From: a virus
Taxonomy: Duplodnaviria; Heunggongvirae; Uroviricota; Caudoviricetes
Direction: 5' to 3' (one strand)
IMG/VR virus record: IMGVR_UViG_2718218435_000004
Length of the DNA: 37,062 nucleotides
The notes beneath the pieces were generated by a model. It had not been told where the DNA came from, ran no database searches, and was given only the letters and a program-made list of their open reading frames with translations. This document shows, piece by piece, positions 1 through 30,405 of the stretch. Position numbers and translations under genes: made by a program. The first letter of the stretch is position 1. The number at the start of each line of letters is the position of its first letter.

Positions 1-903
1 TTATGAAAGCATAGACCGTTTACCCTCCCTGGGTACGACGGAACAGGGGTCCTGATGGATAATCACATCCGATCCCGGAAAACGCCGTAAAATAGCCTGC
101 TCTACCTGATCCGCCACCATATGTGCCTGAACCAAAGGCAGAGAGTCTTCCATTTCCAAATGAATCTGAATAAAGCGGGTCGGCCCTGACTGCCGCGTGC
201 GAAGATCGTGAGCGCCGCTAACACCCGGCCAGGAAGTCACGATATCAATAATTTCTTGCCGTTCTTCATCAGGCAATGCGCGATCCAGTAATGACTGTAC
301 CGCCTCATATCCCATGCGTAACGCGCTATATAAAATATAGATGCCGATTCCCAATGCAAACAGAGCATCGGCGCGATGCCAGCCGTACCAGGACAACCCC
401 AGCGCCAGCAGAATTGCACCGTTCATCATAACATCAGACTGGTAATGTAGCATATCAGCCCGCACCGCCTGGCTTTGCGTCCGGCGCACCACCCAACGCT
501 GAAACGAGACAAGGATAATCGTACAAATTAGCGCCACAATTGTCACGATAACCCCGACGCCTGGATCTGTCATCGGTGTTGGAGATATCAGATGTTGAAT
601 ACCCGTCAAAAACAGGAATAGTGCTGAACCGGAGATAAACATACTTTGCGCCAGCGCCGCGAGGGACTCAGCTTTACCGTGACCAAACGAGTGATTATCG
701 TCGGCAGGTTGCAGGGAATATCGCACCACCAGTAAATTCGTCAACGACGCGCCGATATCCACCAGCGAATCCACCAGCGCGGCGAGAATACTCACCGACC
801 CGGTATACCACCATGCAAAAATTTTAATCAGCAATAGCAGTGAAGCCATCGCCGTTGCAGCAATCGCCGCCCGACTGACCAGCCGTCCATAAGATTGATT
901 CAT
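1..903 (-). CDS. fieF: Host cation-diffusion-facilitator ferrous iron/zinc efflux pump FieF (YiiP)
   Basis: ORF 1..945 (-) contains [37 protein letters not shown]..., recognised as enterobacterial FieF (300 aa). Start placed at the internal Met (MNQSYG), 14 codons inside the ORF-track start. Confidence 0.9.
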
Positions 904-984
904 AAATACTCCCGCTATCAACTGACGGTAGTATAACGGAAGCAAATCATCTGCAATGCATTAAGCAGTAGGCAAATTGAGGAT

Positions 985-8061: not shown

Positions 8062-8961
8062 TCAAAGAATTAGCACTTGCTCTTCACTAGAAACTATGGT
8101 TCTGACTTCACGCTCAAATACTGGATCCATTATCATTTTTCTATTTGTTGGAATAGTAAATTTACCGAGTACCATGACAATGCTACTCAACGGAAATAAT
8201 TTTGGAGTAACATTTCCTAATTGAATCGTAGGATATATATTAAAGCCCCCTTTTATCCTCATTGGCGAACCTTCAATGAAGTGTCGATAATTAAATTTCG
8301 CCATAGGGATTCTCGCCACATGCACTTTCATAATTACAGCAACCTGAGCTATTTTTACTTTCTGGAGGTAAGTTGACAATCGTTCTAACTGCGTTGTTTC
8401 ATAGAAAAAATCAGACCACGTTACAGTACTTGTTCCAGTAACAATTTTTATGCTGTTTCTCTTGTTGGGGTGAGCTTTTCCATATTCATAGATCTCCCGT
8501 AAGCTATCCATGTTCTTCACATAAGGGGCTTTCCGACCTCTCTTGACATAAACGCGGTCTGTAGTATCAGAAGGTGGATTTGCCTGCATAGCTGCAGCTT
8601 TTCTGCTTAATTTAGAGATATCATCTTCATCGAGTATATGTATACGGAATATATTATTACCTGTGGCAAGCGCACGGCTGATATCATGACTGGAATCACT
8701 TGCATAAATTGTATTCAATCCTGAAGTTCCATACTGGCATAATTTGTCATGCGTGAAATTTTTTTCCAGTCTAAAGAAGGCGGGGATATGCAAGGTTTTA
8801 TTAAAACTCCGACGAATATGGCTTTTGACATACACCAAATGAGCAGAGCAATTTGGGTCAGGACATTTGAGTGGATAGGGATTAACACTATAATTAAAAG
8901 TATTTACATTTACTAAAATCTGATTGTTATCAATAGCCTGAGTTATACGAATACCACTCAT
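8062..8961 (-). CDS. Hypothetical 299-aa protein in the Z/fun cargo slot between FI and G; no family recognised
   Basis: ORF with an ATG start preceded by a strong GGAGGAG Shine-Dalgarno; markedly AT-rich relative to the flanking tail genes; occupies the position of the non-essential Z/fun gene of P2. Contains a Cys/His-rich segment (LKCPDPNCSAHLVYVKSH) but no motif I can assign. Confidence 0.7.
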   Translation of the reverse strand: MSGIRITQAIDNNQILVNVNTFNYSVNPYPLKCPDPNCSAHLVYVKSHIRRSFNKTLHIPAFFRLEKNFTHDKLCQYGTSGLNTIYASDSSHDISRALATGNNIFRIHILDEDDISKLSRKAAAMQANPPSDTTDRVYVKRGRKAPYVKNMDSLREIYEYGKAHPNKRNSIKIVTGTSTVTWSDFFYETTQLERLSTYLQKVKIAQVAVIMKVHVARIPMAKFNYRHFIEGSPMRIKGGFNIYPTIQLGNVTPKLFPLSSIVMVLGKFTIPTNRKMIMDPVFEREVRTIVSSEEQVLIL

Positions 8962-13173: not shown

Positions 13174-13521
13174 TCAACTCACAGGGATGGTTAACGAAAG
13201 TGGCTGGCCGGTGTCGTTGTGCTGACCGGTTAACGTGACCGTCATTCGCCCGTCAAAACTGCGCGCCGTGGTGACGGATGACAGGGTGACGCGGGGTTCC
13301 CATTTCAGCACTGCCATGTAACAGGCGACCTTAATCTGCAACTCAAGCGCCGGGGTCTGCGGCTGGTCAATCATTGACGCCAGCAACGAGCCGTAATCAC
13401 GACGCATCACCCGTGAGCCGACGGGGGTACGCAGGATATCGCCGATACTCTGGCTGATATGCTCAAGGTCAGTGACAGTCAGGCCATCACTGCGATTCAT
13501 TCCGAGATAACGCGCAGTCAT
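13174..13521 (-). CDS. W: Baseplate protein W (gp25-like)
   Basis: 115 aa, matches P2 gpW. Confidence 0.9.
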   Translation of the reverse strand: MTARYLGMNRSDGLTVTDLEHISQSIGDILRTPVGSRVMRRDYGSLLASMIDQPQTPALELQIKVACYMAVLKWEPRVTLSSVTTARSFDGRMTVTLTGQHNDTGQPLSLTIPVS

Positions 13522-14153
13522 AGAGGTCCCCCGGTTGTGCCGCCGCTGTCGCCGGGGTGTTTATGGGTATGCAGTACCTTACCGTTTGATGAGAGCTCAC
13601 CGCCGGTGTGTTCAATGTTGCCGCGCATCGTCCCGCCCTTCTGCACTTCCAGCGTGCCGGTAATCAGCCTGTTGGTGCAGACCACCTCCGGTGTGTCCAG
13701 GGTGATGCGGGTTGATGCTTTCACCATGACCACCGGCACCGTGGCAGTAACAGAATCAGAAGCCGTCACGCTGGCCGTTTTAACTCCGCTTACCGTGAGC
13801 GCGCTGGTTTCAGGTTCATACTCAATCACCGCCCCGTCAGGGAAACGGATATGCAGGGCATCCGCCGACGCAGACGGCGCGGGGTTATCGCCGGAATAAA
13901 TCCCCGGCAGAACGAACGCCGTGTCGAGTTCACCACCCACGGCCAGAATCAGCACCTGTTCCCCCACGGAAGGTGCCCACCATGTGCGCGAACGCCCGGC
14001 GCGATGGGTCAGCCACTGAAGCCAGTCGGTGCACATGCCGCCGGTCTGCACACGGCAGCGACCGGCATTAAGGTCGGTTTCGACGATAATGCCGGTGCGG
14101 ATCATGTTGCGCAGTGCGCGCGCGAGTTCCTGAATATTTGCGAGAGTGTTCAT
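13518..14153 (-). CDS. V: Baseplate spike protein V
   Basis: The ORF-track ORF begins at a non-ATG codon; the P2 gpV N-terminus MNTLANIQELARALRNMIRTGIIVETDLNAGRCRV starts at the internal ATG, giving 211 aa. Confidence 0.9.
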   Translation of the reverse strand: MNTLANIQELARALRNMIRTGIIVETDLNAGRCRVQTGGMCTDWLQWLTHRAGRSRTWWAPSVGEQVLILAVGGELDTAFVLPGIYSGDNPAPSASADALHIRFPDGAVIEYEPETSALTVSGVKTASVTASDSVTATVPVVMVKASTRITLDTPEVVCTNRLITGTLEVQKGGTMRGNIEHTGGELSSNGKVLHTHKHPGDSGGTTGGPL

Positions 14154-14236
14154 GCGTGTGAGATTGCACAATATATAAAAGTTATGCTATCTGGATTCAT
14201 TTGTAGAACGACCATACAACATTCGAGGAGAGCGTA

Positions 14237-15022
14237 ATGTTCAGTGATAATGTGACTAATGCGTGGTGGTTTATCTCTTTGTATCTATTTTTATTAATAG
14301 CATTAACATTTGTTACCTTTGGTAAAAGTAATCTTATGAGGTTTATTGCACATCATTTCAATCTTGAGTATTCAGACAGAAAGTTAAAAATGCTCGACAA
14401 AAAATGGCGCGACATTCAACTATTTAAAATAATTAACGGAATCAATGTATCAGGCATCGAAGATGTGAGAATGATACAGCAGGGGCTGATTGATGGAAAA
14501 CTAAAAACATCGTATTTTTTCCTTACTCGCTTCTGGGGTGACATAACAAAACCACCACACATAATTAAAACAACAATTGTAATTCTGGCCAGTATTATTT
14601 ATATTCTCTTCGCATGTTATATACACAATGAACAATCCGCTATAGTAAGGGATGCCATAGGTATACCATATAAAAATATGATGTACTATGTTTATAGTGA
14701 CAAAGTTCTTTTATCCTTCAAAAATAAAACGGTTGAATTTAATAAAACTTATAGCCTTGCCGATTGCAAGAGTCTGCAAAACGTATTTATAAAAGACACA
14801 CTTCCCGAGATCGCCTGCAATAAGCTCTTACAGCTAAACAAGGAGGACTCCGAATGGTTAAGTCAGGAGATTAAAGATAATAACAGCTACAGAAAAACAT
14901 TATTAATAATATCCCTAACCTATTTCATTTCAGGTCTGCTTATATTCCTGTCATATACAAAATTCCTTTACGCCAATAAGAAGGTTGTAGAATACAAAGC
15001 ATCAAATAAAAATCACTCATAA
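14237..15022 (+). CDS. Hypothetical 261-aa membrane protein (about three predicted TM helices) in the orf30 cargo slot between V and S
   Basis: ATG with a GAGGAG Shine-Dalgarno; very AT-rich; transcribed opposite to the late tail genes; hydrophobic stretches near residues 10-28, 103-123 and 218-240. Confidence 0.7.
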   Translation: MFSDNVTNAWWFISLYLFLLIALTFVTFGKSNLMRFIAHHFNLEYSDRKLKMLDKKWRDIQLFKIINGINVSGIEDVRMIQQGLIDGKLKTSYFFLTRFWGDITKPPHIIKTTIVILASIIYILFACYIHNEQSAIVRDAIGIPYKNMMYYVYSDKVLLSFKNKTVEFNKTYSLADCKSLQNVFIKDTLPEIACNKLLQLNKEDSEWLSQEIKDNNSYRKTLLIISLTYFISGLLIFLSYTKFLYANKKVVEYKASNKNHS

Positions 15023-15031
15023 ACCTCTAAA

Positions 15032-15067
15032 CATTGAGCGACCAGCATGGCCGCTCAATGTTTAATT
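15032..15067. terminator. Stem-loop between the convergent orf30-slot gene and S, possible bidirectional terminator
   Basis: cattgagcg - 11-nt loop - cgctcaatg followed by tttaatt. Confidence 0.4.
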
Positions 15068-15093
15068 GCGCATCAGCCTCTGCCTGGATAAAA

Positions 15094-15546
15094 CTAACGC
15101 TCAAGGTGAGCCAGGATAATCTCTTCAATCATCTGCACATCCTCACCGGTAAAGCCGAGCAGAGGACGCGCCGGATAATCAATTTTCTTACCGTTTTTCC
15201 GGGTTTCTTCCGACAGACCGAACTGATGCACACTGGCGATTTTCGGCGACTTCCCGCCGTAAAATTCCATTGATGCCTGTTCCGGGCTGGCGCGGATATG
15301 CAAAAAACGACTGGTGATAAGTTTCGCAAACATTTTTCGCTTAACACGACCGGCCTTTTTTCTGGCGCTCTGCTGCTGGCGTGGCGCGTAGGGTGTGCCG
15401 TCCGGGGCTTTCTGTGCCATCACCCGACGCTGCTGACTCTGACGCAGACGTTTCGCCAGTTCGGCGCTCAGTCGCCGACGCCCTGACGGTGACAGCGATT
15501 CAATAAGTCCCGCCAGCCGGTCTTCAAAACGCTTAAACTCATTCAT
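15094..15546 (-). CDS. S: Tail completion protein S
   Basis: 150 aa, matches P2 gpS. Confidence 0.9.
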   Translation of the reverse strand: MNEFKRFEDRLAGLIESLSPSGRRRLSAELAKRLRQSQQRRVMAQKAPDGTPYAPRQQQSARKKAGRVKRKMFAKLITSRFLHIRASPEQASMEFYGGKSPKIASVHQFGLSEETRKNGKKIDYPARPLLGFTGEDVQMIEEIILAHLER

Positions 15547-17745: not shown

Positions 17746-17948
17746 GCGTTACTCCTGCGTATTTTCATGAAAGGAGATCACTCAATAACTTCCATCGAGA
17801 TCGGGTAATAACATTTGAACAGATCGCTGAATAACATCGATGGAGATCACTTTTGACTCATTTTGTTATTCAGTGATCTCCATCAATGTTATTGGAACTT
17901 CACAGGTGTGTTGATCTGTATCTTTTGCCATTCCGGTAAAGGATACCT

Positions 17949-19490
17949 ATGCCAACAGTTCCAATTTCTATGAGAAAACTTAAAGAAATTCTTAGGCTTA
18001 AATACGGTGTTGGACTCAGCCATCGACAAATTGGTCGTAGTCTTGCAATCTCCCCTTCCGTTGTATCCAGATATGCTAATCGGGCGGCTCAACTTGGCAT
18101 AAAGCAGTGGCCCTTACCTACAGGATGGGATGATACAAAACTAAAACATGCGTTCCTTCAGACCCAGGTTAAGATGAAGAAGCACTCTCTGCCTGACTGG
18201 GCTACAGTACACCGGGAACTGCGTAATAAATGCGTGACGCTGCAGCTACTCTGGGAAGAATACTGTGAGCGTAATCCAGGCGGTTTTTACAGCTATAACC
18301 ATTACTGCCGGATGTACCGTGAATGGCTCAAAACCACTTCACCATCAATGCGTCAGGTACATAAAGCTGGCGAAAAACTTTTCGTTGATTACTGTGGACC
18401 TACCGTTGGCGTTACCGACCCTGAGACCGGAGAAATAAGAACTGCTCAGGTCATCGTAGCTGTTCTCGGGGCATCAAGTTACACATGGGCAGAGGCCACC
18501 TGGTCTCAGCAGCTTGAAGACTGGGTGATGAGTCATGTTCGCTGCTTCCAGTGGTTGGGTGGCGTTCCTGAACTTGTTGTTCCGGACAATCTGAAAAGCG
18601 CCACATCCAGGGCATGTAAGTATGATCCTGACGTTAACCCTACCTACCAGCAGATGCTTGAGCATTATAATGTCGCAGTTTTGCCTGCGCGGCCACGTAA
18701 ACCGAAAGATAAAGCCAAAGCTGAAGTTGGCGTTCAGGTTGTTGAACGCTGGATCATGGCCCGAATCAGGCATGAGATCTTCTACAGCCTTGCATCGCTT
18801 AATCAGCGCATTCGGGAGTTGCTGGAAAGACTGAATAACAAAATAATGCAGAAGTTGGGTTATTCACGTGCAGAACTCTTCATCCAGCTTGATAAACCCG
18901 CACTGAAGCCTCTTCCTGAAGCCAGTTACAGTTACACCCTGGTGAAGAAAGTCAGAGTTCATGCCGATTACCACGTGGAAATCGACAAACATTACTACTC
19001 GGTTCCATGTTCGCTGTTAGGCCAGCAACTGGAAGCATGGATCTCCGGAGAACTGGTAAGACTCTTCAATCAGGGGCAGGAGGTTGCTGTGCACCCGCGC
19101 AAGCGTACTTATGGCTACAGTACCCGCAACGAGCACATGCCTGAAGCTCATCGACAGCATGCCACCTGGACGCCAGAGCGTCTTCTGGAATGGGCGGGGC
19201 ACATAGGCAGTGAAACTCATAGTTATGTGCTTCATATACTGAACTCTCGTCCACATCCGGAACAAAGCTATCGCTTCTGCCTTGGACTCCTGAACCTTCA
19301 TAAAAAATACAGTAAAGCCAGACTTAATGCAGCATGTGCAAGAGCTCTGAAAACAAAGGTATGGCGTCTGTCAGGTATTAAATCGATCCTGGAAAAAGGT
19401 CTGGATAAACAACCTGTTCAGGATCCAAAACCAGATCTGTTATCCACGATGGAACACGAAAACGTACGCGGCAGTGAGTATTACCACTGA
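17949..19490 (+). CDS. istA: IS21-family transposase IstA
   Basis: 513 aa; N-terminal HTH region followed by a DDE transposase core; immediately followed by istB. Confidence 0.9.
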   Translation: MPTVPISMRKLKEILRLKYGVGLSHRQIGRSLAISPSVVSRYANRAAQLGIKQWPLPTGWDDTKLKHAFLQTQVKMKKHSLPDWATVHRELRNKCVTLQLLWEEYCERNPGGFYSYNHYCRMYREWLKTTSPSMRQVHKAGEKLFVDYCGPTVGVTDPETGEIRTAQVIVAVLGASSYTWAEATWSQQLEDWVMSHVRCFQWLGGVPELVVPDNLKSATSRACKYDPDVNPTYQQMLEHYNVAVLPARPRKPKDKAKAEVGVQVVERWIMARIRHEIFYSLASLNQRIRELLERLNNKIMQKLGYSRAELFIQLDKPALKPLPEASYSYTLVKKVRVHADYHVEIDKHYYSVPCSLLGQQLEAWISGELVRLFNQGQEVAVHPRKRTYGYSTRNEHMPEAHRQHATWTPERLLEWAGHIGSETHSYVLHILNSRPHPEQSYRFCLGLLNLHKKYSKARLNAACARALKTKVWRLSGIKSILEKGLDKQPVQDPKPDLLSTMEHENVRGSEYYH

Positions 19491-19501
19491 TACGGGATCC
19501 A

Positions 19502-20251
19502 ATGATGAATCATCTTTACGAACAACTGACCGCACTTAAACTCACCGGCTTCCGTGATGCGCTTAAAAAGCAACTTGCTCAGCCGGGCACATACCAGGAG
19601 CTGGGCTTCGAAGAACGCCTGTCATTACTGACAGCAGAAGAACTAACCTGCCGTGAAAACAGGAAGGCAGAGCGTCTGATCAAACATGCACGGTTCAGAC
19701 TTAATGCTGAGTTATCAAAGCTGGATTATCGTAACAATAGAGGGCTGGACAGGGCCCTCATCCGTTCACTCAGTCAGGGAAACTGGTTAACCCTGAAACA
19801 AAATATTTTACTGACCGGGGCCACCGGCAGCGGTAAAACGTTCCTGGCATGTGCACTTGGTCATAATGCCTGCCGACAGGGATACAAGGTCTACTATTAT
19901 CGCCTTAAAGCGCTGATGGAACAGTGCTATCAGGGGCATGCTGATGGAAGATACAGCAAACTTTTGACCAGGCTGAATAATAGCGATCTGCTGCTTCTGG
20001 ATGACTGGGGGCTGGAACCTCTCTCATCAGAACAGCGTAGCGACCTGCTGGAAATAGTGGATCTGATGTACCAACGAGGCTCAATCATCGTAGTGAGCCA
20101 GTTGCCGGTGGAAAACTGGTACAAAATGATCGGAGACTCCACACATGCGGATGCCATCCTAGATCGACTGGTTCATGGCAGTATCAAGATCGAACTTAAA
20201 GGAGAATCAATGCGGAAAATACAATCTCCGTTGACCGAAGGAGATCAGTGA
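19502..20251 (+). CDS. istB: IS21-family helper ATPase IstB
   Basis: 249 aa with Walker A GATGSGKT and Walker B LLLLDDWG, typical of IstB AAA+ proteins. Confidence 0.9.
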   Translation: MMNHLYEQLTALKLTGFRDALKKQLAQPGTYQELGFEERLSLLTAEELTCRENRKAERLIKHARFRLNAELSKLDYRNNRGLDRALIRSLSQGNWLTLKQNILLTGATGSGKTFLACALGHNACRQGYKVYYYRLKALMEQCYQGHADGRYSKLLTRLNNSDLLLLDDWGLEPLSSEQRSDLLEIVDLMYQRGSIIVVSQLPVENWYKMIGDSTHADAILDRLVHGSIKIELKGESMRKIQSPLTEGDQ

Positions 20252-20304
20252 AGGTAATTTAAAAACGGTTCTGTGAAAGTGACACGAACCGATCTCCATC
20301 GATG

Positions 20305-20538
20305 TTACTCACCGATCTCCTTCACGGTAATACGCAACTCCCACAGATTGACAGTTTCAGCCACGGGCGCGGTCTGAACGTCGGGCAGTTCGACGGCGGT
20401 GCCGTGCGGCAGCACCGCACCCAGTTCAGCCAGTCCCGGATTTGCGGCGAGCACGGCCTCGACCACGCCCTCAGTGCGCCCGTAATACCGGACACAGATG
20501 GCGTCGAGCGTGTCGCCCTGTAGCGCAAAGGTCTTCAT
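20305..20538 (-). CDS. X: Tail protein X with its C-terminus altered by the IS insertion
   Basis: MKTFALQGDTLDAICVRYYGRTEGVVEAVLAANPGLAELGAVLPHGTAVELPDVQTAPVAETVNLWE matches P2 gpX (67 aa), but the reading frame now continues 10 codons (LRITVKEIGE) into the IS right end before a stop. Confidence 0.8.
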   Translation of the reverse strand: MKTFALQGDTLDAICVRYYGRTEGVVEAVLAANPGLAELGAVLPHGTAVELPDVQTAPVAETVNLWELRITVKEIGE

Positions 20539-27247: not shown

Positions 27248-28252
27248 ATGGATCAGAGAATCCTTGAACATGAAGCGATTAAACAACTTAGCAAAAAATC
27301 AGTGCGCAAGTTGTTTGGGGTTCACGATATCCCTAGAGCCAGTTCACCATTTCGCTATCCAGGAGGTAAAGACAAACTTGCCTCATTTCTCGCTATTTTT
27401 CTTGTACATAATAAGTTAAATGGTGGCCGGTTTATTGAACCATTTTGTGGTGGTGCTGGAGCATCACTTTCTTTACTATTGGGCGGATATGTAAAAGAGA
27501 TCCACTTAAATGATAAGAACTATGCTTTATTTTGCTTTTGGGATCAATTAATTAACAACACTGATAATTTATTGGATATGGTATATCAGAATATACCATG
27601 CATTGACGATTGGCATAAACAAAAGAAAATCTACCAAACGAGTATTATTGACCCCAATAAATACACCAAACTCGAATATGGTTTTAGTGTATTCTATTTA
27701 AACAGAACAAACAGATCTGGAGTACTAAGCGCTGGGCCAATTGGCGGTTTAGACCAGTCTGGAAAATATAAAATTGATTGCAGATACACTGTAAGTACGC
27801 TTATTAAAAAGCTCGAAAAAATAGCTAGCATGCGTGACTCTATATTCGTTTATAACGAGCACTGCATTGATTTTTTAAAACGTTTCAATAGTAAAGATAA
27901 CTATGATCATGATTTCGTTTATCTAGATCCTCCTTATGTTAAAGAGGGGCGCAACATTTATTCAAAAAACTTTTGCTTCGATGACACTCAGCATCGCGAG
28001 CTTAAGGATTACATAGCTGGTTATGCAAATCGTTGGTTAATTTCTTATGACGATCACCCTCTAGTGCATGAATTATACTCAAAACATGGCACAAGAGCCG
28101 TTGAGATAAGTTACGCCATGAATAAAGCAAAAGTTGGAAAAGAATTAATGATAGCGGATTCTCGCTTAAGAATGCCAGAATCATTATTCTCTGTTGATAT
28201 ATTAAAATCTGGCGAAATACCAATGAAGAAAAAAGTAGTTAAAATGGCCTGA
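27248..28252 (+). CDS. Dam-like (D12-class) N6-adenine DNA methyltransferase
   Basis: 334 aa with FRYPGGK near the N-terminus, the SAM-binding motif EPFCGGAGAS and the catalytic DPPY motif; AT-rich; lies where P2 has old/tin. Confidence 0.85.
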   Translation: MDQRILEHEAIKQLSKKSVRKLFGVHDIPRASSPFRYPGGKDKLASFLAIFLVHNKLNGGRFIEPFCGGAGASLSLLLGGYVKEIHLNDKNYALFCFWDQLINNTDNLLDMVYQNIPCIDDWHKQKKIYQTSIIDPNKYTKLEYGFSVFYLNRTNRSGVLSAGPIGGLDQSGKYKIDCRYTVSTLIKKLEKIASMRDSIFVYNEHCIDFLKRFNSKDNYDHDFVYLDPPYVKEGRNIYSKNFCFDDTQHRELKDYIAGYANRWLISYDDHPLVHELYSKHGTRAVEISYAMNKAKVGKELMIADSRLRMPESLFSVDILKSGEIPMKKKVVKMA

Positions 28253-28254
28253 TA

Positions 28255-29274
28255 TCAGGCCGCTTCTGCTTGTAATGTTTCAGTTGTAGAAATCACATAT
28301 TGTGAAATATCATTTATTTCATCTTTCCGTTCTATTAGTAGCCCTGGATCTGATACCAACAGTTCTAACCCTTTCTTAAAGCAAGTAGGTAACCGGAGTC
28401 TATGCAATACTGCGCCAAACTCCTCTGCGACTAGTGAAATATGGTCTTTCTTTATAGATTCATCATCACTCTCAAAATCAAAAGGTATAACAATAGCATC
28501 AGTTATTCTATATATTCTTTGCGCTAACCAGTGATTTTGTATGTTTGCAATATCCTCTTTTATTGCTTTTGAACGCCAATCTTGGCCGCTAGCAACTTGA
28601 GCAAAATAAATTTGCTTGCTTCCCGGATATGTATCGCGGGGATTATTATCTTTCCATGCAATCACATCAATACCAGCATCTTTATGAGGTCGTGTTTGCA
28701 AATAACGATTAACATCCTCAAATGGTCTAACCCTTCCTTCACCAATTAAATCAACAGCTCTAGTAAGAGCATCATAAAACTTTGAACTATCAGGTCTTGG
28801 CCAGCCGAATGAAATACTATGCCCCTGAACATAGCCAGCTAATGCAATTGTTGCAGCAATCTGTAATAAGTCTCGGTGTTTTCCTGTCGGCAAATCTACC
28901 CCATTAAATAGCCGTGATGCCGACATATGAGAAAAATACAAACAATATAAGTATATATGCTGATCTACGGTAAGTAATTCCAATGTTTCCTTTGCCAATT
29001 CCAAACATTGCGTTTCTTCATTAAAAATAAAAGGATAGCTATCCCCGAGTATATCCTTTCTTTGTTGATATTGTTCTAATAGTCTTTGTATTTCATTTTC
29101 GACTTCAGCATCTTCTTCGCCTATATCGGAAGATGTAAATGAATCTAAGTTCTCTAGAATATTCCTTAGTTCTGAAATTCGCATTGTAAAATATACATTT
29201 GATAAGCAAGATAACTCAAGCCAATCCAATTTGACTTGAATATGATGACTCTCTGGATAAGGTTGCAACTGCAT
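28255..29274 (-). CDS. Hypothetical 339-aa protein, second gene of a two-gene operon; possible nuclease-like partner (tentative)
   Basis: ATG 3 nt after the stop of the upstream ParB-like gene with a GAGGAA Shine-Dalgarno; AT-rich; convergent with the MTase, stops 2 nt apart. Segment HKDAGIDVIAWKD...IYFAQVASGQ loosely resembles Mrr-type PD-(D/E)xK motifs, but this is not established. Confidence 0.7.
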   Translation of the reverse strand: MQLQPYPESHHIQVKLDWLELSCLSNVYFTMRISELRNILENLDSFTSSDIGEEDAEVENEIQRLLEQYQQRKDILGDSYPFIFNEETQCLELAKETLELLTVDQHIYLYCLYFSHMSASRLFNGVDLPTGKHRDLLQIAATIALAGYVQGHSISFGWPRPDSSKFYDALTRAVDLIGEGRVRPFEDVNRYLQTRPHKDAGIDVIAWKDNNPRDTYPGSKQIYFAQVASGQDWRSKAIKEDIANIQNHWLAQRIYRITDAIVIPFDFESDDESIKKDHISLVAEEFGAVLHRLRLPTCFKKGLELLVSDPGLLIERKDEINDISQYVISTTETLQAEAA

Positions 29275-29277
29275 CTC

Positions 29278-30405
29278 TTATTCCTCAATGCTCTGCAATT
29301 GATATTGAACCTTAGATACCTTTCTCTTAAACTGTTCGATGTAGTTCTTCGTCGTATCGTCTAACGAATCTGTTCTATCTAAAACAGAAGATATAGTATC
29401 AAGTTGTTTGTTTATTTCCAAAAAAGCATCTTTAATGTGTTGAAGAGGGTCACCCGCTTGCTTATATAATTCAGAAAGACTTTCAACTCCAGACTTAAAA
29501 GCTTCATATGAAGCCTCATTCGCTAAAACCTCACCAAAATATTTCAAATCAGGATTTTGCGAAGAGATCAACGATGCTCTTTTATCTTTTTTATACCCAT
29601 AAAGACCGATCAGAACATCTCTGAGTTTATCAAGATTCCTTTGCGGTACAGGATTCTTTCTGAGTGTAATATTCCAATCTTTCTCCAATCCTAAAAAATC
29701 TTTATATTCAGTTCTATTCAAAGCCGTATACAAATGAGAAAAAGAAAATTTTGGTGACATTCTGTCGACATGAATATCATATATTTCTTGAGTTTTAGCC
29801 TGTTCAAGAACAAACATAGCACTAACTATAGAACGAACAGTATTGTTACTGTCACCAAGTTTTTTTGTTATATGTTCAATAGTGAGACCGTTATCTCTTT
29901 CACTTATAAACCATTTATATGCGAACTGTGCTTTAGCAAACGAATCCCATTTATGGGGACCATTAACATGTTTAAATCCAATAAATGAACGAGCTTCTGA
30001 CTCATCATTAACAAGATAAACAGCAACTTCCTTGAGGCTATCCAAAACCCAAGAATCTATATTTTTTGGAACGACAACTCGACATTTTTGTGCCAAGCCC
30101 GGTTCAGTAAGCAATTTGATGGCAGCTAAACGACGATTACCTTCTAAGACGACATACTTATCATCTTTTTTCATGACAATTAAAGGTTCAATCGACATAT
30201 ATCCATTTTCAGAAATGGATTTAATCAATTCTTCTAAATCTGCAGTATCAGATAATGCTTTAACCAACTCATATGAGTCAGCATTATCATTAAAGCTTTT
30301 CCCGTTATAAAGCCTTGGATTTCTAGCATCCAAGATTAACTCATCCGGGGAAATCATCTGTGTTTTGAGCGGTTCTAAGACAGTTTTTGGCATTTTATGC
30401 ACCAT
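29278..30405 (-). CDS. ParB/Srx N-terminal-domain protein (ParB-like nuclease/NTPase fold), first gene of the two-gene operon
   Basis: 375 aa; NPR box near the N-terminus (LILDARNPRLY) and SIEPLIVMKKDDKYVVLEGNRRLAAIKLL resembling the ParB GxRR arginine motif; AT-rich. The true start may be the first ATG or the ATG four codons downstream. Confidence 0.7.
   Translation of the reverse strand: MVHKMPKTVLEPLKTQMISPDELILDARNPRLYNGKSFNDNADSYELVKALSDTADLEELIKSISENGYMSIEPLIVMKKDDKYVVLEGNRRLAAIKLLTEPGLAQKCRVVVPKNIDSWVLDSLKEVAVYLVNDESEARSFIGFKHVNGPHKWDSFAKAQFAYKWFISERDNGLTIEHITKKLGDSNNTVRSIVSAMFVLEQAKTQEIYDIHVDRMSPKFSFSHLYTALNRTEYKDFLGLEKDWNITLRKNPVPQRNLDKLRDVLIGLYGYKKDKRASLISSQNPDLKYFGEVLANEASYEAFKSGVESLSELYKQAGDPLQHIKDAFLEINKQLDTISSVLDRTDSLDDTTKNYIEQFKRKVSKVQYQLQSIEE

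Follow-up and report, generated by a model that had tools for sequence, protein, structure and literature searches.

Phage P22 carries SieA, an inner-membrane protein with three predicted helices that is expressed from the prophage, blocks DNA delivery and exists in deeply diverged types (PMC10883804). In P2-like phages, horizontally acquired genes are found at three sites, one of which is the orf30 locus (PMC3091744). The gene itself is a 786-bp open reading frame (ORF) with no known function that has been inserted between genes S and V and is missing from phages W-phi and L-413C (PMC2771037); phage R18C has a different ORF at this locus (PMC6823313). P2 is a model phage in which a function has been ascribed to nearly all genes, and orf30 is among the last without one. 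Here we analyse orf30 and its product, Orf30, in a 37,062-nucleotide stretch of DNA (the window; IMG/VR virus record IMGVR_UViG_2718218435_000004) that contains a P2-like prophage. The existence, position, composition and dispensability of the ORF are known from earlier publications. New here are the Orf30 family and its near-confinement to the P2 slot, a putative link to DUF6216, the predicted topology of the protein with its cysteine pair, the pattern of selection, and the direct demonstration that the slot between S and V (the S/V slot) holds known defence systems.

Identity and occurrence of orf30

The ORF listing of the window contains an intact ORF of 261 codons with an ATG start between gpV and gpS (Table 1). 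A 922-bp region at this place is 91.9% identical in DNA to phage P2, in which AF063097 9439-10224 is annotated 'Orf30, nonessential', and 100% identical to E. coli D10. The encoded protein shares 84% identity with P2 Orf30 (AAD03281.1), and in a scan of PHROGs its residues 1-261 align to positions 1-261 of phrog_2407, a family of unknown function, with an E-value of 5e-141. The only database names for the protein are 'hypothetical' and 'Uncharacterized 30.4 kDa protein in S-V intergenic region' (UniProt). The P2 and window genes have in common the length of 261 amino acids (aa), the V and S flanks, the opposite orientation, the upstream activator site and the downstream hairpin. The window gene is an allelic variant that differs from that of P2 mostly in the N-terminus and the first transmembrane helix (TM1); in contrast to P2, its setting is a chromosomal prophage with an IS21-family insertion. 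The window gene is almost certainly the orthologue of P2 orf30, and the architecture predicted below is very likely as well. The preliminary description of this DNA, which had placed the gene in the P2 orf30 position, can be corrected to the extent that the gene is orf30 itself and not merely an occupant of its slot.

The preliminary description had also characterised the gene as very AT-rich, encoded opposite to the late genes and equipped with its own Shine-Dalgarno sequence, and all three observations hold. The guanine plus cytosine (GC) content of orf30 is 0.326 and that of its third codon positions 0.35, compared with a window average of 0.505 and values of 0.57-0.63 in the flanking late genes. 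The gene lies on the plus strand, opposite to all neighbouring late genes, gpV and gpS included. The Shine-Dalgarno sequence GAGGAGAG has its GGAG core 6 nt before the ATG, and AAGGAG-like sites are found upstream of most members of the Orf30 family.

Of 5,426 complete E. coli genomes, 464 carry P2-type orf30, at 482 places in total and exclusively on chromosomes. In complete E. coli genomes, P2-type V was located 1,810 times, from which it follows that about a quarter of P2-type prophages carry orf30. It is close to certain that orf30 is a non-essential, horizontally acquired, AT-rich accessory gene (a 'moron') residing in the variable S/V slot of a P2-like prophage. A member of the Orf30 family is present in 16 of the 78 close relatives in which S was located, the slot being empty in 52 of these; the composition of orf30 is distinct from that of the surrounding phage genes; and a predicted hairpin behind it would provide a terminator of its own.

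Selection on orf30

The ratio of nonsynonymous to synonymous substitution rates (dN/dS) was estimated from 16 distinct P2-type orf30 alleles, all of them intact. The ratio is 0.44 for the whole gene, compared with 0.18 for gpV and 0.085 for gpS. Within orf30 it drops to 0.29 in the region encoding the cytoplasmic domain and to 0.23 in that encoding the periplasmic domain, and reaches ~1.1 in the N-terminus plus TM1 and 2.9 in the third transmembrane helix (TM3), the last value being based on few substitutions. The soluble domains of Orf30 are thus constrained by purifying selection, and its membrane anchors can vary freely. This is a functional gene, not one in decay.

There is next to no probability that the ORF is decaying or spurious and without function. 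Such an explanation could draw on the fact that the ORF, since its description, has not been given a function, on a whole-gene dN/dS above those of the neighbours and on one truncated allele (L066). It is nevertheless at odds with the intactness of all 16 alleles and the low values in the soluble domains, and with homologues at 17-40% identity that keep the length, helices, motifs and cysteine pair. Moreover, orf30 is not a chance ORF, because 261 stop-free codons have a probability of ~2e-9 at the base composition of the cassette, which has 33% GC in the ORF. The functionless ORF is effectively refuted by the conservation data, and orf30 is a real gene, a product of neither chance nor decay.

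Predicted architecture of the protein

Orf30 has three hydrophobic segments, at approximately residues 9-28, 109-130 and 221-240, in which the 19-residue Kyte-Doolittle means exceed 2.0. All three were modelled as helices by AlphaFold, in agreement with the three transmembrane segments predicted in the preliminary description. A first model, made from 6 sequences, had a predicted local distance difference test score (pLDDT) of 76, and a second, made from a 27-sequence alignment, a pLDDT of 83.8 and a predicted template modelling score of 0.73. The model consists of helices plus a four-stranded sheet at residues 141-173. A fold search of the PDB and of viral predicted structures returned no specific structural neighbour of either model, and a comparison of the Orf30 profile with solved structures yielded noise alone, with a best E-value of 0.04 on a membrane subunit.

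Across the family, the first loop is basic, with a mean of 12.8 lysines and arginines against 7.8 aspartates and glutamates, and the second is neutral (12.0 against 12.2). The N-terminal stub is devoid of lysine and arginine, and the C-terminal tail is basic. Under the positive-inside rule, the loop charges place the N-terminus outside, loop 1 in the cytoplasm, loop 2 in the periplasm and the C-terminus inside. Orf30 is predicted to be a three-pass inner-membrane protein with a periplasmic N-terminus and a cytoplasmic C-terminal tail, its loops forming a helical domain of ~80 aa in the cytoplasm and an alpha/beta domain of ~90 aa in the periplasm.

Conservation across the family is highest in loop 1, where column identity is 0.33 overall and peaks at 0.51 at residues 61-70; it contains the motif D-x-Q-L-F-[KR]-x-x-N-G-[IV]-N-V followed by D-A. 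It is lowest in the three membrane helices, whose column identities are 0.14-0.23. Loop 2 carries a pair of cysteines 15-19 residues apart in all 27 aligned members. In the window protein these are C177 and C194, and the conserved pair suggests that they probably form a disulfide stabilising the periplasmic domain.

The Orf30 family and its relation to DUF6216

An exhaustive profile search of 1.84 billion representative proteins recovered 44 Orf30 representatives, ~25 of which are full-length at 250-271 aa. The divergent members were reached through this exhaustive hidden Markov model search; a word-index protein search returned five close clusters only. Loci were found with clade-level alignments, the whole-family alignment having no conserved stretch. 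The 27 aligned sequences are 17-38% identical to the window protein and fall into at least 12 deep clades, and all of them keep the three hydrophobic helices, the charge pattern and the cysteine pair. By these searches, the family is small and confined to Enterobacterales.

Most homologues with a readable neighbourhood lie between V and S, anti-oriented, in a P2-like phage or prophage, and members with identities down to 17-25% still occupy this place. They include a locus of E. coli (L002), viral contigs of two clades (L003-L008, L010, L011), loci from five Enterobacterales genera (L098, L128, L156, L161, L167), one from Sodalis (L172) and those of another clade (L175-L178). In two further loci (L009, L182) the S side is cut off and the homologue adjoins V, again anti-oriented. 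Where the loci are covered in full, identity to the window proteins is 57-86% for gpJ, gpV and gpR and ~22-29% for the Orf30-like proteins. Strict locking of the family to the slot was rejected, as a few homologues lie outside it. One is located between an integrase and a gpD fragment (L184 2395-3153), two lie beyond gpR beside a GNAT acetyltransferase gene in a degraded remnant with a frameshifted V (L180 3995-4777 and L181), and one adjoins chromosomal genes at the end of a contig (L173 1-788). Another locus of the same clade as L180 and L181 has the same GNAT neighbour and no P2 gene within its 3.7 kb (L179). The family was found on 0 of 72,556 plasmids, and a tblastn search of sequenced phage isolates with divergent members found only the P2-type clade.

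We treat Orf30 as a putative divergent branch of a DUF6216-like superfamily, to which it is linked transitively. The window protein does not match DUF6216 (PF19723; gathering cut-off 27.3 bits) even at E<=10. A Sodalis sp. member of the Orf30 family (P0032) scores 28.9 bits over its full length, above the cut-off, and seven other relatives match co-linearly below the threshold, at 13-24 bits. In addition, the defective P2-like prophage of E. coli BL21(DE3) encodes a true DUF6216 member (E = 1.5e-11) on the opposite strand between S and V (L174 45115-45921; NC_012971 885114-885920). This protein, WP_000115390.1, has 268 aa and is named 'DUF6216 family protein' in RefSeq. It resembles Orf30 in its similar length, its three hydrophobic segments, its place in the S/V slot and a D-C ... 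[AL]-C-x-x-L cysteine-pair motif in the middle domain, but has a much shorter first loop and aligns only weakly at the profile level (hhalign probability 16%, 48 columns). DUF6216 itself has no known function. The Q/A hotspot of the same BL21(DE3) prophage carries a retron of the St85 family.

The S/V slot and its cargo

For a survey of the slot, 160 loci with gpV were fetched and S and V located in each. One sample comprised close relatives, with gpV 94-100% identical, and the other one genome per species. Among the close relatives, 52 slots were empty, 16 held a member of the Orf30 family and 10 other AT-rich cargo, and S was not found in 2; the corresponding numbers for one genome per species are 21, 5, 35 and 19. 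Empty slots measure 59-76 bp, mostly 66-68 bp, and have a GC content of ~0.6. Slots with an Orf30-family gene alone measure 894-940 bp with a GC content of 0.32-0.37, and are longer in three loci where other genes lie alongside (L098, L128, L167). Other cargo spans 0.8-3.1 kb.

In six of the empty spacers, of 59-68 bp (L013, L014, L092, L111, L118, L119), a conserved hairpin rich in GC, GCCGCCGG...CCGGCGGC, lies immediately upstream of V. A simple insertion into the slot was considered and rejected: occupied alleles replace the whole 66-bp spacer, including the terminator and the pV promoter region. They bring a hairpin and pV promoter region of their own, and the GC-rich spacer of 66-68 bp in empty relatives is unrelated to the cassette of the window.

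The cargo of the slot includes known defence systems. A complete Pycsar (pyrimidine cyclase system for antiphage resistance) pair was found at L080 1998-3900 (PycC, E = 1e-128; PycTM, E = 8e-29), and L171 1222-2624 encodes the reverse transcriptase of a type V retron (E = 7e-156) next to a small ORF; the genes of both systems are co-oriented with V. Further cargo comprises the PADLOC candidates PDC-S06, PDC-S59 and PDC-S33 and a Ppl-like ATPase. Read from the sequences without a library scan, some of the remaining cargo looks like toxin-antitoxin-like pairs, and that of L151 looks like a secreted, fimbrial-type protein.

The flanking genes differ in their divergence. Across L012-L171, identity of gpS to the window protein is bimodal, at either ~95-99% or ~41-57%, with gpV at 70-100% in these loci; gpR is 63-79% identical in the ten divergent loci compared. 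This pattern suggests that gpS exists in two deep types and that recombination has a boundary at or beside the slot.

Transcription signals

The hairpin between the convergent orf30 and S genes has a predicted folding energy of -22.7 kcal/mol on the plus strand (z -4.7) and -32.5 kcal/mol on the minus strand (z -6.0), and no shuffled sequence folded as well. As modelled, it can serve both the orf30 and the late-operon transcripts. On the other side of the gene, transfer of the P2 annotation places the pV late promoter with its activator site within the 83-bp space between V and orf30; the putative Ogr-type site has TGT at 14201-14203 and ACA at 14215-14217. Judging from its opposite strand, its own Shine-Dalgarno sequence and the hairpin, orf30 probably forms its own transcription unit, divergent from the Ogr-dependent pV promoter and ending at the hairpin shared with the convergent late operon. 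The best sigma-70 candidate for the gene, GTGAGA-19-TATGCT, has 7 of 12 matches and a 19-nt spacer and ends 48 nt before the ATG. Sites with 8-9 of 12 matches occur 17-38 nt before the start in several of the divergent family members.

Possible roles of Orf30

We propose, tentatively, that Orf30 acts in anti-phage exclusion at the level of the envelope, most likely through a SieA-like block of genome delivery; we regard this as a real possibility that falls short of probable. The protein would be made from the prophage in the lysogen and would act at the cell envelope, shielding the lysogen from superinfecting phages. It would interfere with the passage of phage genomes through the periplasm and inner membrane in the manner of P22 SieA, and its periplasmic domain would meet the incoming phage or the inner-membrane entry factor of that phage. 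The preliminary description had suggested superinfection exclusion or abortive infection, with possible expression from the lysogen, which is plausible and now better grounded. Homology to a structural or lysis gene, which it had named as evidence against this idea, was looked for in Pfam, PHROGs, solved-structure profile and fold searches, and none was found. The suggestion is supported insofar as recognised defence systems share the slot, a support for a defence role that is one of location only, and insofar as the terminator-like hairpin bounds the gene.

Several observations weigh against exclusion. Orf30 matched none of the PADLOC-DB 2.0 models at E<=10, and the PHROGs scan returned three families of 'unknown function' only, none with any assigned function and hence none annotated for exclusion, as SieA, Imm, Sp, Cor, Llp and similar proteins would be. 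No Pfam family was matched above threshold, the sub-threshold match being to DUF6535 on a membrane helix. To our knowledge, old, tin and Z/fun account for the classical exclusion phenotypes of P2, and orf30 for none of them. No sigma-70-like site with at least 9 of 12 matches lies upstream of P2-type orf30, and a gene of 33% GC may be silenced by H-NS. Many cargo genes of the slot have no defence annotation, which makes guilt by location weak evidence. Finally, a defence gene would not usually be so nearly confined to the P2-like phages of Enterobacterales as this family is, and the distribution could point to a P2-specific role.

It is unlikely that Orf30 is an abortive-infection effector, which would lie inert in the inner membrane until its cytoplasmic domain sensed a phage, then oligomerise or open, so that the membrane potential collapses and the cell dies before progeny appear, in the manner of RexB, the membrane effectors of Pycsar and of cyclic oligonucleotide-based antiphage signalling systems (CBASS), or holins. 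The layout of three helices with N-terminus out and C-terminus in resembles that of class I holins, and the cytoplasmic location of the most conserved part fits a sensor or gating domain. Other abortive-type systems occupy the slot, a Pycsar membrane effector among them, and a weak promoter and AT-richness would suit a toxic gene held at a low level. However, Orf30 matches neither PycTM nor the other PADLOC membrane effectors nor holin families, the conserved disulfide-bearing periplasmic domain would be left unexplained, and helices that are the least conserved parts of the protein, with dN/dS of at least 1 in the N-terminus plus TM1 and in TM3, are unlike a precisely built pore. About as improbable is a lysogenic-conversion factor unrelated to phages, altering the host envelope with effects on stress signalling, transport, colonisation, or resistance to colicins or host factors. 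A moron-like unit of foreign composition under purifying selection would be expected of such a factor; the slot has many cargos lacking a defence annotation, including the apparently secreted protein of L151, and Orf30 itself is without defence homology. Host-fitness genes, on the other hand, are normally found in many contexts, whereas this family is tied almost exclusively to P2-like phages, and the deep divergence of alleles between well-conserved flanks looks like an arms-race locus.

The restriction to P2-like phages and prophages, mostly adjoining the spike gene V and near the lysis cassette, also bears on a role in the P2 life cycle or in conflicts within the P2 group, such as tuning of lysis or injection, protection from P2-type tails or R-type tailocins, or interference with P4-type satellites. 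A role of this kind would account for the exclusive association of the family with P2-like tail genes, and the Ogr-type site directly upstream of the start codon makes late regulation in either direction conceivable. We nonetheless find it very unlikely: the gene is annotated as non-essential in P2, approximately two thirds of the close relatives have an empty slot and are otherwise the same phage, and orf30 is oriented against the late operons. Distinctly unlikely, too, is that Orf30 and DUF6216 proteins make up an exclusion family of the P2 lineage. Its periplasmic disulfide domain would block contractile-tailed invaders (heteroimmune P2-like phages, P4 in P2 virions, R-type tailocins), and the gene would lie beside V since spike and exclusion variants recombine together. 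If this were true, Orf30 would be a new single-gene envelope defence and the fourth exclusion function of P2.

More generally, if Orf30 is an exclusion or other defence protein, it would be a membrane-level, single-gene addition to the P2 repertoire and provide a function for DUF6216, and the S/V slot would rank as a confirmed defence hotspot alongside the old/tin and Z/fun regions. If it has no phage phenotype, orf30 would be an ordinary prophage accessory gene. Experimental handles are now available in the form of a defined predicted topology, two cysteines, a conserved cytoplasmic motif and natural alleles at 17-40% identity in the slot.

Other features of the prophage

The coordinates of the features are collected in Table 1. 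Precisely where late genes X and Y meet, the prophage has taken up an element of the IS21 family, 2.58 kb long, and comparison with P2 shows a 5-bp target duplication. Polar effects are to be expected on the genes for holin and endolysin and on lysABC, R and S. The window prophage is therefore probably defective, although its orf30 is intact. In the old/tin hotspot, located between portal gene Q and replication gene A, there is a pair of genes resembling PD-Lambda-5; the ORF between the two components is unannotated and has no Pfam or PADLOC match. The same searches found no match for the ORF in the Z/fun slot, between the FI tail sheath and G tail fibre assembly genes. At the left edge of the window lies a fieF-like host cation-efflux gene, which places the D/ogr-side boundary of the prophage within the first ~1.4 kb. 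An ORF with ASCH/DUF3850 and DUF7415 domains adjoins the replication gene A region.

Table 1. Features of the orf30 locus and of the remaining prophage, in window coordinates
Feature	Position	Strand	Evidence or remarks
gpV baseplate spike gene, left flank of slot	13518..14153	-	97% identical to P2 gpV
AT-rich cassette of 940 bp, the entire S/V intergenic space	14154..15093	.	composition profile, slot survey, comparison with empty-site junctions
Putative late-activator (Ogr-type) site of divergent pV promoter	14195..14222	-	transferred from AF063097 10239-10266; sequence conserved
Shine-Dalgarno sequence GAGGAGAG	14225..14232	+	read directly from sequence
orf30 coding sequence, 261 aa plus stop	14237..15022	+	ORF listing; DNA identity to P2 orf30; full-length phrog_2407 match
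Predicted transmembrane helix 1, aa 9-28	14261..14320	+	hydropathy; AlphaFold helix 5-28
Predicted cytoplasmic helical domain, aa 29-108	14321..14560	+	family charge and column conservation
Predicted transmembrane helix 2, aa 109-130	14561..14626	+	hydropathy, AlphaFold model
Predicted periplasmic alpha/beta domain, aa 131-220	14627..14896	+	model strands, net charge ~zero, cysteine pair
Cysteine pair, C177 and C194	14765-14767 and 14816-14818	+	conserved in family alignment
Predicted transmembrane helix 3, aa 221-240, followed by basic C-terminal tail, aa 241-261	helix 14897..14956	+	hydropathy, model, charge
Terminator-like hairpin between convergent orf30 and S	15028..15064	both	structure prediction; in P2 record, putative rho-independent terminator of O operon
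gpS tail completion gene, right flank of slot	15094..15546	-	97% identical to P2 gpS
Host cation-efflux gene, fieF-like	1-945	-	Cation_efflux plus ZT_dimer domains
ORF of 299 aa in Z/fun slot	8062-8961	-	
IS21-family element	17756-20336		
istA	17949-19490		rve and Mu-transposase C-terminal domains
istB	19502-20251		
old/tin hotspot	27248-30405		PD-Lambda-5-like pair
PD-Lambda-5 component B, D12-class adenine methyltransferase	27248-28252		E 7e-94
ORF of 339 aa between the PD-Lambda-5 components	28255-29274		
PD-Lambda-5 component A	29278-30405		E 5e-22
ORF of 162 aa	30811-31299	-	ASCH/DUF3850 and DUF7415 domains

Comparison with known systems

Class I holins are proteins of ~70-110 aa with three helices, encoded within the lysis cassette and co-transcribed with the endolysin. 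Orf30 departs from them in its 261 aa, its two large loop domains, the lack of any holin match in Pfam or PHROGs, and the location of its gene, which is on the opposite strand and outside the Y-K-lysABC lysis cassette. The other cargo of P2 variable regions (old, tin and Z/fun) and of hotspots in P2-like phages (PARIS, retrons and PD systems) is similar to orf30 in being AT-rich, non-essential, placed between conserved core genes and swapped among similar phages (PMC9122126, PMC13586616, PMC3091744). It differs in that anti-phage phenotypes have been demonstrated for it and that its products are mostly cytoplasmic enzymes, whereas Orf30 is a predicted membrane protein with no homology to them.

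P22 SieA is smaller than Orf30, at 162-164 aa, and has no large loop domains; no similarity between the two appeared in the PHROGs scan, and no direct sequence comparison was made. Yet it is, like Orf30, encoded by a prophage, has three predicted membrane helices and belongs to a family split into deep types. With a single gene sufficient for its effect (PMC10883804), SieA is the closest functional model for Orf30.

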